Source of the DNA: a virus
Taxonomy: Duplodnaviria; Caudoviricetes
Virus record (IMG/VR): IMGVR_UViG_3300028197_000002
DNA: 64,000 nt
Reading direction: 5' to 3' (one strand)
The translations under genes were made by a program, and so were the position numbers. Each line of letters opens with the position of its first letter. Positions within the stretch are counted from its first letter, which is position 1. Below the pieces are notes generated by a model that searched no databases, had not been told where the DNA came from, and worked only from the letters and a program-made list of their open reading frames with translations. This document shows positions 4,779 to 54,297 of the stretch, piece after piece.

Positions 4779-5069
4779 TTATTTATTTTCTTTTACAGCA
4801 GTGTCTTTAGGCGTAACTATATTCTTATCCTTCATGTTTTTAGCTTCAACGTCTGCATTAGCTTTGCTTGGGTTAAAGTATTTTTCAGGATATTGACCAG
4901 AAACATAAGCATCAGGATAGTTTGCACTATAGCCTGTTCTTACTCTGTTTTCATCGGTAGTGTTGTCCTCAGCTTCCTTTGCCTCAAGATTATCTTCGGC
5001 AGGAGCTGCATCTGTAACTGCTGGACTTTCTAGTTTGTTTTCTTTCATCCAATTTAAAAATGATTGCAT
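4779..5069 (-). CDS. Small acidic protein with CTS-like N-terminus (candidate capsid-internal protein)
   Basis: MQSFLNWMKE; AAGGAG SD; TATATA upstream. Confidence 0.6.
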   Translation of the reverse strand: MQSFLNWMKENKLESPAVTDAAPAEDNLEAKEAEDNTTDENRVRTGYSANYPDAYVSGQYPEKYFNPSKANADVEAKNMKDKNIVTPKDTAVKENK

Positions 5070-5167
5070 TATAAAATCTCCTTGTGAACAATTTTATATA
5101 GAGTATATATAAGTTTTTTTTCATTTTTTTCAACTATATAATTTAGTCGCAAAAGGAGATAAATTTA

Positions 5168-6892
5168 ATGAGATTCGCAGAATGGCTAATTTTTGAAGAT
5201 ATAAGAGAAGATTTTAATAATTGTCACTTTAAATTGCTACTTAAACAAGTAGATGAATTGTTCGAAAGAGCATTAAAAACCAAAGGATTTATTGAAGAAA
5301 ATGTGGATTTTGAAGTAATTCAAGAAGTTTGGCAATATCCCACATCAGTAGAAACAATATCTGAAAATTTAAGCGATTGCAACTGCCGAGCTTTAATGGC
5401 CAAAAGCACAATACCAGTAAATTGCTGCTCTCTCAAGTGCATAAAAGATCTAATGGTTCAGGTTAGATTAGGAGGAATTGAGGAAAGAAGAAAAGATATG
5501 GGGAATCTGCAGGTCCTGCACAACAAGCAAATCGAGGTAGCTGAGGAATTGGAGAAAGAACCAGAAAATCCCTTCCTCATAGAAGATTTAGAAGACGTAG
5601 CAAAAGAAAAAATTAAACTATTAATTAAGCTTGGTCATATTAGAAAAAGAGAAACATTCGTTCAAAACTTCTATCTTGATGAACTAAAAGATAGAGAAAA
5701 GAATCTAGAAGAGCTTAACAAAAGAACTATGAACGCCTTGGCAGAAAAAAACAATGAAGTTCCAGAGGAAATGAAAATATATTTAAATCCCAATGCAAAT
5801 AAAGACTTTGGAACATTTTTAATGAAAATGTTTGTAAAAGGAGATGACATAGATCGAGCAGGAGACATATTCCAAAATTTCGTAAAAAGATTGACATCAA
5901 AAAAAATAAAAAATGGAGAAGCAACTTGGAAAGATTTTGCTGGTCTTAAAGGAACTTTACAAGATCTTGAAGACTCTGAGTGTGACGATTCATCATTAGG
6001 ATCACCAAAATCAGTTGAAAAAGAAAGTCCAATATTAAACAGACTATCAAAATTTATGAAAGCAAATATTTCTAAGTCCGGGAGATCTGGAAGTGAAGAG
6101 TACGTTTCTCGAAAAGAAACTGTGACAAGCAGAACGGCAAAACAAGCAATTATAAATAATGACTTGGGAAGAACGAAAGCGAAAGGACAAATAAATTGGT
6201 CTAAAAAAGGATCTGAGAATTTGGGATTCTATCGGGATGCTTTAAACAGTTTGTTTAATGGAGAAGAAATAAATGTTGTTTCAAGAGAAGATAAACTTAG
6301 AAAAGAAATAGTAGAAGATATATTTTTCTCTAAAAGCACTAATAAAGACTTGTTTCCAATTAGACCGTCTAACAAAGAAAACATAAGTTTATCATTGGAA
6401 AGTTATTATGATTTTTTGAAAGCAAGTACAATTTCAAAAGTTGCAGAAGTTCCACGAACTGCACTTAAAAGTTCAAGCGAAGAAGAAGACACAGACGCAG
6501 CAATACTAAGTTCATTAAGAGGCAGATCTCAAAAAGACAATTCTGTTGGGAAGTCTGCTGACCCTCTTAAACAACTAATTGGCAAAGAAGAAATGGAAGT
6601 GGGAGAATTAGGAAAAATAAATCAACAACTAAAGAAAATGCTTTTGGGATCAGAAGAAGAAATGCAACAAGCTCTTTCTTTCTGCATCAAATATGGGTTA
6701 GACTGCAGAAATTTCAATAAAATTAATGTAAGCAAAGATGTGTTTAGAACAACAACAAAAGGAGATTCCTTAAAAGGTCTTCCTGTACAAGTTGTAGCGA
6801 ATCAACTCTCTGTAATGTTGAAAAAAGACATCCCTTATCAAAAAGCAAGAAATCTAACAATGGACGCCGAGGCCAAAATAAGAAGTTTATAA
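5168..6892 (+). CDS. 574-aa protein with CTS-like N-terminus and sigma70 region-4-like C-terminus
   Basis: MRFAEWLIFE; C-terminal CIKYGLD..LPVQVVANQL..IPYQKARNLTMDAEAKIR aligns by eye to RpoD RMRFGID..YTLEEVGKQF..VTRERIRQIEAKALRKLR; AAGGAG SD. Confidence 0.5.
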   Translation: MRFAEWLIFEDIREDFNNCHFKLLLKQVDELFERALKTKGFIEENVDFEVIQEVWQYPTSVETISENLSDCNCRALMAKSTIPVNCCSLKCIKDLMVQVRLGGIEERRKDMGNLQVLHNKQIEVAEELEKEPENPFLIEDLEDVAKEKIKLLIKLGHIRKRETFVQNFYLDELKDREKNLEELNKRTMNALAEKNNEVPEEMKIYLNPNANKDFGTFLMKMFVKGDDIDRAGDIFQNFVKRLTSKKIKNGEATWKDFAGLKGTLQDLEDSECDDSSLGSPKSVEKESPILNRLSKFMKANISKSGRSGSEEYVSRKETVTSRTAKQAIINNDLGRTKAKGQINWSKKGSENLGFYRDALNSLFNGEEINVVSREDKLRKEIVEDIFFSKSTNKDLFPIRPSNKENISLSLESYYDFLKASTISKVAEVPRTALKSSSEEEDTDAAILSSLRGRSQKDNSVGKSADPLKQLIGKEEMEVGELGKINQQLKKMLLGSEEEMQQALSFCIKYGLDCRNFNKINVSKDVFRTTTKGDSLKGLPVQVVANQLSVMLKKDIPYQKARNLTMDAEAKIRSL

Positions 6893-6896
6893 ATTT

Positions 6897-7319
6897 ATGA
6901 AAGATTACATCCCCGCCATACTCGTAGCTTTATTTTGGGGAGTTTCGTATGGGGCTTGTGAACAATCTTTAAAGAGTGTTGATAAAAAAATATTTCTTCT
7001 TATCACAGGAATTGTAACAGGATTTTTTTGGACTTCCTATTATTTCATAGGTAAAAGCGAAAACAAAATTGATTCAATTGGATTGTTCTGGCTACTTGTA
7101 AGTGTGATTGCAGCGTTATTGGGAAATTATTATTGCCTAAAAGCTATAGAACAAATGGGTTCTGTTAAAGCTTCTGTCATAGAGATATCTTATCCCATTT
7201 TTTGCGCTTTGTTCATAATGCTTGTACAAATGAAAATCACGATGAACATTCAGCAAATAATTTGCATGTTCATCGTGATTTTTGGTTCCGCAGGATTTAT
7301 GTGGTGTGGTAGAAATTAG
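6897..7319 (+). CDS. EamA/DMT-family small membrane transporter
   Basis: 140 aa, about 5 hydrophobic helices; ALFWG, G..Y..L.AI..G..KAS.I..SYPIF pattern. Confidence 0.75.
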   Translation: MKDYIPAILVALFWGVSYGACEQSLKSVDKKIFLLITGIVTGFFWTSYYFIGKSENKIDSIGLFWLLVSVIAALLGNYYCLKAIEQMGSVKASVIEISYPIFCALFIMLVQMKITMNIQQIICMFIVIFGSAGFMWCGRN

Positions 7320-52808: not shown

Positions 52809-52854
52809 AAATATCCTTGTTTTTAATTAAATTCACATTTATATATACTGTATC

Positions 52855-53658
52855 ATGAGAACATTTAAAGAATGGATAGAAAAAAGACAAGATATTTTTG
52901 GCTTTGAAAAAGAGCAAGAAGAAGACTCGTCGTTTGCCGTAAAAAATCAAGATCCAATTATGCAAGTTGATATTGAGCATATTATGGATGAATTGGCAAA
53001 CACTAAAATCCATGGAAAAAGAGGCAAAATTCCTTATATTAATGAAATACACTGGGGTGACGAAATTGGCTCTTTAAAATTATTGCTAAGTCCCGCTGGT
53101 TCTGGCAAAGCAATAATATCTGGAAAGCAAACTGATCTTGAAAATAAAGATTGTTGGATTTGCAAATCAATAATTCCATATGTGAATCTAGAAGATGCTT
53201 CATTTAGAGATGATGAAAACCTCGCTGATATACTGTATAATAAAATAGATGAAATTGGACCTATAGAAATACCTAAAGCAGAATATTTAAATTTAGAAAA
53301 ACTAACAATTAAGCTTTCTAGAAAATGTTGCAAGCCTGACGTTATACCTAAAATTTTTATATACACAGGAATAAGAGAAGTAGTTAAAGATAAAAATTAT
53401 ATAATAAAATTTGAATGCAAAGGACAAGGAGCAGAGGCTCCGGGAGAAGGTGGAGGAAATAGACTTGAAATGTTTGCCATAGAAACATCTTATAATGATA
53501 AAACTGGTTTGATTAGATGCATGGGTTATGGAGTAACCTCTCCCATGAAAGGCCATAAATGGGAACCACAGCCATCTGATTGGGATGAATATTTTTCTCC
53601 AAAGCAAAAATCAGATGAAATTTGTGAAGCAATTGCCAACGCTTTAAGTATTTTTTGA
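52855..53658 (+). CDS. Hypothetical protein with CTS-like N-terminus
   Basis: MRTFKEWIE; TATACT-N5-ATG. Confidence 0.7.
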   Translation: MRTFKEWIEKRQDIFGFEKEQEEDSSFAVKNQDPIMQVDIEHIMDELANTKIHGKRGKIPYINEIHWGDEIGSLKLLLSPAGSGKAIISGKQTDLENKDCWICKSIIPYVNLEDASFRDDENLADILYNKIDEIGPIEIPKAEYLNLEKLTIKLSRKCCKPDVIPKIFIYTGIREVVKDKNYIIKFECKGQGAEAPGEGGGNRLEMFAIETSYNDKTGLIRCMGYGVTSPMKGHKWEPQPSDWDEYFSPKQKSDEICEAIANALSIF

Positions 53659-53796
53659 GGATTTAAAATGATGGGATCTGTTAGTTCTATAGTTCGCTGC
53701 AAAGATTTGGAAAACAAAAACTTTCAAGTTCAGGGTGCATTGTCTAATTTGGATTGTAAAAAAGAAAAGAAAAAAAATAAAACAAAAATAAAAACA

Positions 53797-54297
53797 ATGA
53801 AATTTAGTGAATGGTATGAAATAAGAGAAGCAAAAGAAAAAAAGAAAGTTCCTAAAAAATACCTAAAAGGCTTAAAAGAAAAAGGCGAATACGGATCAAA
53901 AGAAGCAATGAAAAAAGAGATAAAAAAATTCTCAGGCTCTGACGATTACAAAAAAAATTGGGATGCTGATTATAAAAATGGGAAAAGGATAAAAACAAAA
54001 AAATCAGCAGCTACAAAAGCTTATGAGAAAAAGTATGAGTCTAATCTTTTTGAATCTAATGATAATATAGATGTTGCTTTGAAAAACAAATCTGAAAAAA
54101 CTGGAATATCCAAATCAATACTTAGAAAAGTATACAACCGAGGAAAAGCCGCTTGGAATTCTGGACATCGACCGGGTGTTGCTCAAGATCAATGGGCTAT
54201 GGGAAGAGTCAATAGTTTTATAACAGGAAGTGGAGGCGCTCGAAAGGCAGACAAAGATCTTTGGGATAAAGCTAAAAAATCTAGGAAAAAGAAATAA
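53797..54297 (+). CDS. DUF5824-like basic protein with CTS-like N-terminus
   Basis: MKFSEWYEIRE at the internal Met of ORF 53668-54297; TGISKSILRKVYNRGKAAWNSGHRPG..QWAMGRVNSF. Confidence 0.7.
   Translation: MKFSEWYEIREAKEKKKVPKKYLKGLKEKGEYGSKEAMKKEIKKFSGSDDYKKNWDADYKNGKRIKTKKSAATKAYEKKYESNLFESNDNIDVALKNKSEKTGISKSILRKVYNRGKAAWNSGHRPGVAQDQWAMGRVNSFITGSGGARKADKDLWDKAKKSRKKK

Follow-up and report, generated by a model that had tools for sequence, protein, structure and literature searches.

Why should about a dozen otherwise unrelated proteins, scattered along one phage genome, begin with the same few residues? The question is raised by a 64,000-nucleotide stretch of viral DNA (Duplodnaviria; Caudoviricetes; IMG/VR record IMGVR_UViG_3300028197_000002), which was analysed at its full length and is called the window below. 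An earlier note had picked out twelve N-termini in it, likened them to the capsid-targeting sequence (CTS) of the internal proteins of phage T4, and suggested that the proteins form an injected cargo set. All twelve translate exactly as they were quoted. The N-terminal peptide that they share, here called the tag, is genuine, strictly N-terminal, selected as a peptide and modular.

A simple gene call yields 88 proteins in the window. Ten of them start with the motif in its strict form, M-x(1-2)-[FWY]-x-x-[FWY]-x(1-4)-E (regular expression ^M.{1,2}[FWY]..[FWY].{1,4}E), compared with 0.53 expected from its rate of 0.6% at internal positions (binomial P 1.8e-10). With the starts at 53797, at 55759 (a weaker case) and at the left edge (MNNFDDFELHKE) added, up to 13 proteins are tagged, amounting to 11-15% of the window's genes, or about one gene in eight. 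All ten strict tags feature Phe or Tyr followed three residues on by Trp, Phe or Tyr, at residues 3/6 or 4/7, and their consensus reads M-[KR]-x(0-1)-F-x-E-W-[LI], in which the Trp (TGG) is the most conserved position. The 88 proteins contain ten copies of a narrower core, [FY]x[EQDKNST]W[LIFMY]x(0-3)E, eight of them directly after the start Met, and 13 of the 17 hits of a loose motif among all six-frame ATGs opening a frame of at least 30 aa are gene starts. The proteins are unrelated beyond the tag, as had been claimed, with all-against-all BLASTP matching their first residues only. The claim that no clear tail or replication gene is tagged also holds within the window, where the motif is absent from the sheath, tube, baseplate, ribonucleotide-reductase (RNR) and nucleotide-metabolism genes.

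The nearest GenBank record, LR756511, is an unannotated 595-kb assembly of an uncultured phage (GC content 42%) whose major capsid protein is 75% identical to that of the window phage. It carries 40 strict hits among 1065 genes, against 6.3 expected (P 1e-19), in 39 unrelated similarity clusters, and its tag consensus is M-[KL]-[TN]-F-[KR]-E-W-[LF]-E. The shortness of the motif and its initial selection by eye would favour chance, paralogy or a gene-calling artefact as its origin. An unbiased search for gapped N-terminal patterns nevertheless ranks aromatic-x-x-aromatic-x-acid first in both the window and LR756511. We reject this explanation, to which we assign next to no probability, on the enrichment (P 2e-10 in the window in addition to the value for LR756511), the unrelated bodies and the retention of the tag in orthologues.

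A second possibility is that the shared start is a feature of the messenger RNA, for example an enhancer of translation initiation, or a downstream box, in an AT-rich genome. AT-rich genomes favour AAA, TTT and GAA as the codons that follow a start, the window has a GC content of about 32%, and many tagged genes share one promoter type. Against this, the same peptide recurs at 42% GC in LR756511 and at 49% GC in a further relative, a 21-kb fragment of which has four such starts. Synonymous codon use in the LR756511 tags equals the genome average (TTT for Phe, 58% versus 57%; AAA for Lys, 48% versus 47%), and in IMG/VR relatives the orthologues of the proteins at 14830, 18414 and 36441 have retained the tag, with changes in the residues beside it. 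Taken together, these observations exclude an AT-codon or mRNA-level origin. The conservation of the single-codon Trp and a one-residue variation in the spacing from Met that leaves the peptide register intact point the same way, and we consider the explanation very improbable.

The shared promoter type bears out another claim of the earlier note. ATATATA or TATATAA, scored by regular expression 15-65 nt upstream, precedes six of the ten strict-motif genes and 10 of the 78 others (Fisher P 0.002), and the gene at 14830 has the near-match TTATATATC. The element also precedes the gp13 and tube genes; the nucleotide-metabolism genes instead have sigma-70-like TTGxxx/TATAAT boxes. Given the gp55-like sigma factor encoded in the window (Table 1), a fair reading of the element is as a putative T4-style late promoter. 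Two divergent pairs of tagged genes (4779-5069/5168-6892 and 52500-52808/52855-53658) are separated by short intergenic stretches (5070-5167 and 52809-52854) centred on TATATATA, which could act as bidirectional promoters.

The CTS found in T4's internal proteins IPI, IPII and IPIII was reportedly described by Mullaney and Black in 1996. In the T4 record, IPII and IPIII start MKTYQEFIAE, IPI starts MKTFKEFTS...ITE, and a 54-aa open reading frame (ORF) starts MKTFKEFIKE. Packaging of IPIII needs its first ten residues only, and mutational mapping places targeting mainly at residues 4 and 7 and processing at residues 8 and 10 (PMC9026906). The window tags match at the mapped targeting residues, with aromatics at 4/7, followed by hydrophobic-x-Glu as a candidate processing site, and the likeness proposed in the earlier note extends to the positions that matter. 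Their full layout is an aromatic, two residues of which the second is usually Glu, a second aromatic that is usually Trp, an aliphatic residue and then Glu; the starts at 52855 (MRTFKEWIE) and 36785 (MINFKEFILNE) are near-copies of that of IPI. As in T4, a leader of about ten residues occupies the extreme N-terminus of otherwise unrelated proteins, with aromatics three apart (Y/F4 and F7 in T4, F3/4 and W/F6/7 here) and an acidic residue between them, and one genome encodes a gp21-type S77 protease, a gp23-type capsid protein and a gp55-type late sigma factor. Several features differ. The second aromatic is Trp here instead of Phe, there is often one residue fewer after Met, and the first Glu often follows W-[LFI]. 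Tagged proteins are up to 574 aa long (1076 aa in LR756511), some of them from conserved enzyme-like families. There are 10-13 tagged genes in 64 kb and about 40 in the 595-kb relative, where T4 has four; the same families bear another leader in related lineages; and the system described here is known from sequence alone.

For calibration, the same regular expression and gene caller were applied to complete genomes. T4 gives six strict hits among 264 genes, including IPII, IPIII and the 54-aa ORF. KVP40 (10 of 384) and HTVC008M (7 of 191) each have three to five convincing CTS-like starts, S-CREM1 has four hits among 216 genes (e.g. MKTYNDFITE), and LIS04 has none among 237. These counts indicate that a CTS-like start is widespread in T4-like phages, at 1-2% of genes. 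In kind, the tag corresponds to an established signal (the T4 CTS), whose form here is new and much larger, with lineage-specific alternative leaders; that it is functionally a T4-type CTS, hugely expanded in number, we think probable.

A T4-type head module lies 14-19 kb upstream of the window and was reached by walking upstream through contigs; L052, which carries it, is 100% identical to the window over a 1365-base overlap. Its genes run in the order portal, a 580-aa acidic protein, Peptidase_S77, a 306-aa protein and the Gp23 capsid protein. The Peptidase_S77 (PF03420; L052:2223-3029) supplies the gp21-like protease that the earlier note had proposed to look for; it is 32% identical to T4 gp21, and its motifs GELDHP and SSRG align with GELNHP and SSRG of the T4 enzyme. 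No S77 gene was found in the IMG/VR fragments of relatives, which are only 8-25% complete. The 580-aa protein occupies the position of T4 gp67/gp68 and the 306-aa protein, helical, acidic and scaffold-like, that of gp22; neither has a Pfam or PHROG match. A complex prediction pairing the 40-residue N-terminus of the 52855 protein with the scaffold-like protein and the S77 protease, run without controls, scored 0.01 and counts neither way. The portal gene (L052:1-342, about 19 kb upstream of the window) contains an intein, Pfam listing Intein_splicing with Portal_T4. Directly downstream of the head module and about 11-12.5 kb upstream of the window, L052:6803-8146 separates an M19-peptidase-like gene from a trypsin-like one; these roughly 1.3 kb contain a single gene call, of 32 aa. 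A second Peptidase_S77 match in LR756511 (242621-242989, -; E 3.5e-9) is weaker and lies far from the head module of that phage.

The capsid protein is 30% identical to T4 gp23 and starts MQANAKFLNE. Its first 48 residues contain the candidate cleavage sites FLNE, LLE, LLE and LINE↓AS, the last immediately preceding the part that aligns with mature T4 gp23. LR756511 has LFNE↓IA at this site, which suggests that an aromatic at P3 is tolerated in the clade. Among the tagged proteins, [LIVM]-x-E ends at residues 10-19 in nine of 12, compared with 17 of 76 untagged proteins (P 6e-4), and three window tags have W/F-x-E only. The cleavage point would not necessarily be the first Glu; in the GP88 protein the conserved junction is ITE15. 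The sequences incline us, by a narrow margin over even chances, to expect that the tag is cleaved after Glu.

In two families from the window the tag can be followed across lineages. GP88-domain proteins form a very conserved family with 725 matches, the best 120 of which are all 56-98% identical. In all 117 homologues with an [IV][DN]W anchor, hydrophobic-x-E directly precedes the anchor (P3 is Leu in 48, Ile in 47 and Tyr in 13), and the leaders of 10-42 residues are of several types: the F..W tag (e.g. MEFKEWLYNE), MLKKLLREALAFKxQIDE, MGKDIRKIISEVLNE and others. One relative, L115, has the GP88 leader MNKLNRLYNVVLNE, and no neighbouring gene there has a similar start. The DUF5824 homologues likewise bear the F..W tag, F-D-E-F-I-[ST]-E (closer still to T4), an ILKxxLxE-type leader or none, and the DUF5824 Pfam model begins only at residue 19 of the window protein (53797-54297). 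In the AlphaFold models of the HExxH protein and of GP88, the tag is a short helix, set apart from the fold on a linker of low confidence. The tag is very probably a modular address label, and the alignments present the leader types as exchangeable between lineages on the same protein family.

Alternative leaders also recur on unrelated neighbours. In relative L113, GP88 starts MGKDIRKIISEVLNE and is followed by four genes that start MDIRRIIREVLSE, MDIILEIRKIIREVILKE, MKEVRNIIREVLKE and MYIIKIIREVVDE; past the leader, the five adjacent proteins are unrelated, and one is an ART-PolyVal ADP-ribosyltransferase. LR756508, a more distant huge T4-like phage of 484 kb (major capsid protein 34% identical), has the F..W tag at background level. 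The top pattern of the unbiased search there is basic-x-basic-x-aliphatic-aliphatic (46 observed, 4.5 expected; P 2e-30), and 22 mutually unrelated proteins start ..KLRxI[IV]xEE... Nineteen of the 22 genes lie within 143-220 kb, around the S77 gene (156.5-158.1 kb) and the major capsid gene (172 kb). This clustering links the alternative leader with head morphogenesis, and through the leader exchange seen on GP88 and DUF5824 the F..W tag is linked with it too. The S77 domain of LR756508 lies in a 576-aa open frame (156507-158102) and was matched as two pieces. Distinct from the KLRxIIxEE set is a family of paralogues in LR756508 (about 177-337 kb), at least 14 proteins of 245-285 aa that all start M-x-[LF]-K-x-L-L-x-E. 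An M.LK.LL.E group in this genome was considered as a third leader; it is mostly one paralogous family (14 of 19) and was not counted. Beside GP88 in two further relatives stand Acb1/2',5'-RNA-ligase-like proteins (L112:9399-9962 and L114:11386-11949) with the leader-like starts MDIRKKLRTALIE and MNLKQKIREALLKK, and these sequences hint at enzymes directed against the cyclic-oligonucleotide-based anti-phage signalling system (CBASS) in the tagged set.

Modularity and lineage-specific leader types reveal an address label, not a destination, and the partner might be other than the prohead core: a phage chaperone, an AAA+/ClpP protease that times degradation or activation, a site at the membrane or cell pole, or a regulatory protein that binds all tagged proteins. 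Relative L115 encodes ClpP, and several tagged proteins are enzymes able to act in the cytoplasm. A Sec or Tat signal peptide was rejected because the tags are amphipathic and acidic and lack a hydrophobic run (h-region of 10 or more residues). Against any such partner stand the match to the T4 CTS at residues mapped for capsid targeting, the hydrophobic-x-E sites after the tag, and the clustering of the LR756508 leader genes around the prohead protease and capsid genes. We regard a different partner as unlikely, though a contender to be taken seriously. That the tag's address is the prohead appears likely, with binding to the core suggested by the T4 parallel.

Under a T4-type mechanism, late expression of the tagged proteins would be driven by TATA-type promoters that the gp55-like sigma factor recognises. 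The short N-terminal helix, with its two aromatics three apart, would dock on the scaffolding core of the assembling prohead, and the capsid shell would then close over the docked protein. The gp21-like S77 protease would cut the leader at hydrophobic-x-Glu, leaving the mature protein free inside the capsid, from which it could exit with the DNA at infection. A more elaborate proposal, which we put forward tentatively, is that lineage-specific address codes (F-x-E-W-L-x-E in the window phage and LR756511; ..KLRxIIxEE.. in LR756508 and L113) co-evolve with the prohead core and load dozens of unrelated enzymes and anti-host proteins, the leaders being swapped like cassettes.

Related arrangements in other systems help to place the tag. 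The T4 gp24 and gp23 propeptides are also N-terminal amphipathic leaders that end in L/I-x-E and are removed by gp21, and the start of gp24 in the T4 record, MAKINELLRE before Ser, bears a loose likeness to the ..KLRxIIxEE.. leader of LR756508 and L113. These proteins and gp22, gp67 and gp68 of the core differ from the tagged proteins in being structural, with one leader each, whereas here the leader is borne by a large and varied non-structural set. The very large capsids of SPN3US, phiKZ and 201phi2-1 hold about 50 different proteins, and the propeptides of their ejection proteins are thought to target the prohead and are cut after Glu by a T4-related prohead protease (PMC5694885, PMC7411985). 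Those propeptides, however, mostly exceed 100 residues and have no common short motif, and the phages are not of the gp23/gp20 T4-like lineage to which the window phage belongs; in the GP88, DUF5824 and HExxH families the conserved bodies already begin at residue 16-19, so these leaders are not long propeptides of the giant-phage kind. Encapsulin cargo-loading peptides offer an analogy only: they too are short and transferable and bring unrelated enzymes into an HK97-fold shell, but they are usually C-terminal, bind the shell and not a scaffold core, and remain uncleaved.

The fate of the proteins inside the head is a separate question. T4 Alt and IPI are delivered to the host, and the enzyme-like tagged bodies (GP88, DUF5824, the HExxH zincin and the family-2 glycosyltransferase (GT2), and the ADP-ribosyltransferase in L113) resemble these. 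They stand against the idea that the tag does target the prohead but marks assembly or scaffold accessories that are degraded or retained as structural internal proteins and not injected. That idea draws on several tagged proteins that are small, acidic and of low complexity (4779-5069 and 7334-7930) and on the T4 core proteins gp67, gp68 and gp22, which are cut to small peptides (PMC5694885). We judge it quite unlikely. Ejection of most tagged proteins into the host is itself a guarded proposal, drawn from the kinds of protein encoded, to which we give slightly less than an even chance.

Several observations weigh against a T4-type CTS as the explanation. The tagged share is far above that of T4 (10-13 of about 88 genes here and 40 of 1065 in LR756511, against four genes), and the nearest GenBank phages are uncultured assemblies only. 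Some tagged proteins look like ordinary enzymes, namely the glycosyltransferase here and, with leader-like starts, HAD- and Acb1-like proteins in relatives, and these would fit equally well in the cytoplasm. Half of the LR756511 tags, and four of the ten strict tags in the window, have their first Glu after W-[LFI], which gives an aromatic P3 unlike the canonical Leu or Ile of T4 gp21 sites; a canonical [LIVM]xE near the N-terminus is not enriched among the LR756511 tags (37% versus 30%); and the hydrophobic-x-E junction of GP88 could be part of the fold rather than a cleavage site. Finally, the region upstream of the capsid gene has no clear TATATA box, so the designation of the promoters as late depends on the gp13 and tube genes only.

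The tagged proteins and the sigma factor are collected in Table 1. The domain assignments of the earlier note hold for GP88 and DUF5824. Its HEXXH peptidase is upheld by a HExxH..E signature that is invariant in the family and by a weak zincin fold match (Foldseek, zincin-like protease, E 0.045); feature matches in the Atlas to M85/PipA-type zincins (0.90-0.92) serve as a lead only. Across 44 aligned homologues of this protein, Phe3 and Trp6 of the tag are at least 90% conserved. The label "sigma-like" for the 574-aa protein found no support in Pfam, PHROG or the Atlas, and no family was found for it. With regard to the putative Fe-S nature given to GP88 in that note, the protein has four invariant Cys only, and a fold search of its model against the PDB returned nothing usable.

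Table 1 Tagged proteins and late sigma factor of the window
Position	Strand	Product	N-terminus	Evidence and remarks
3..161	-	N-terminal part of a 110-aa protein running off the window	tag-like MNNFDDFELHKE	Additional to the list in the earlier note
4779..5069	-	96-aa acidic protein	MQSFLNWMKE (F4, W7, M-K-E10)	Translation and regular expression; TATATATA upstream
5168..6892	+	574-aa protein	MRFAEWLIFE (I-F-E10)	Translation; divergent partner of 4779-5069
7334..7930	-	198-aa acidic-repeat protein	MLSYSEYKKLNE, weaker Tyr/Tyr tag	Translation
14830..15288	-	152-aa protein	MKFTEWYSLRE	Translation; orthologues in relatives also tagged (MKFSEWQLLKE, MDFNNWYQLRE)
18414..19004	+	196-aa protein (phrog_13298)	MKNFSTWLE	Orthologues MKKFSNWIVE, MKFSNWINE
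25206..25748	-	gp55-like late sigma factor		Sigma70_r2 1.9e-5; phrog_234 late sigma factor 2.6e-5
36441..36785	-	114-aa helical protein	MINFKEFILNE	Orthologues MMFKEFLLNE, MKFKEFLLIE, MEFRDFLLNE
45446..46027	-	193-aa candidate zincin metalloprotease	MNFKKWFE	Invariant H145, E146, H149, E152
48024..49082	+	352-aa GP88-domain protein	MKFTEWLAAEE, then junction M-I-T-E15 before VDWK	GP88 E 3e-21
52500..52808	-	102-aa protein	MKFSVWFE (then V-I-E15)	Translation
52855..53658	+	267-aa protein	MRTFKEWIE, closest to T4 IPI MKTFKEF	Divergent partner of 52500-52808 across TATATATA element
53797..54297	+	166-aa DUF5824 protein	MKFSEWYEIRE (I-R-E11)	DUF5824 E 5e-20; frame open from 53668
55759..56700	+	313-aa family-2 glycosyltransferase	MNLKEFYE, weak tag	80-aa N-terminal extension relative to untagged paralogue 19225-20004

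The start of the DUF5824 protein at 53797 is an internal ATG of the open frame 53668-54297, yet 21 of the 120 listed homologues begin exactly at such a tag. The 43-codon in-frame extension that precedes the tag (53668-53796, +) is kept as protein in the closest relatives (NFQVxGAxSxLxCK, P0121-P0127) and is absent from most homologues. This distribution implies either that the DUF5824 tag is internal in one sub-lineage or that 53668-53796 holds a conserved upstream element. A related arrangement lies about 1.5-2 kb upstream of the window, where a 169-aa protein (L051:7837-8346, -) has the tag MKFTKWLQLKE and a second, MRNFKEFCE, at Met76; its sequence may represent two tagged units in one frame or an internal start. 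The acidic protein at 7334-7930 contains about four 11-residue repeats (AETEEVKAEET) and differs by 33 bp between the JGI and ENA contigs, with gene calls of 187 and 198 aa.

These two contigs also place the window in its genome: it is identical to part of the 331-kb ENA contig and nearly identical to the 259-kb marine JGI contig. The source is a very large (>330 kb), uncultured, marine, T4-like myovirus, and from fragments of relatives, CheckV estimates put the genomes near 500 kb. A megablast search with 16 kb of the window against GenBank phages gave no match, nor did an exact-word scan of IMG/VR. Coding is dense on both strands and includes a contractile-tail module with T4 signatures (sheath, gp19 tube, gp13, gp15 and T4 baseplate) and RNR-sized genes. 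Only twice in the window does the core motif occur internally, and one of these cases is in a 399-aa Nudix protein (1302-2501, +), where GATFKEWLENS, with INIKE before it, lies around residues 149-159, past the Nudix domain (5-127). Directly 5' of the Nudix gene is a LAGLIDADG homing-endonuclease ORF (757-1293, +), and the pair recurs in L116, the relative with 49% GC.

If the tags work as in T4, the pre-made payload of these phages of more than 330 kb (484 and 595 kb in the relatives) would be much larger than that of any T4-like phage studied. The payload, even the whole ejected proteome, of an uncultured phage could then be listed from its sequence alone, which for phages that resist cultivation would lead straight to candidates for injected proteins of anti-defence and host takeover. 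Lineages differ in the leader that they put on the same family, a natural experiment on recognition between cargo and scaffold. From these leaders, the existing methods of protein delivery based on the T4 CTS would gain new and possibly orthogonal targeting peptides, and a sizeable part of huge-phage orphan genes would have an explanation.

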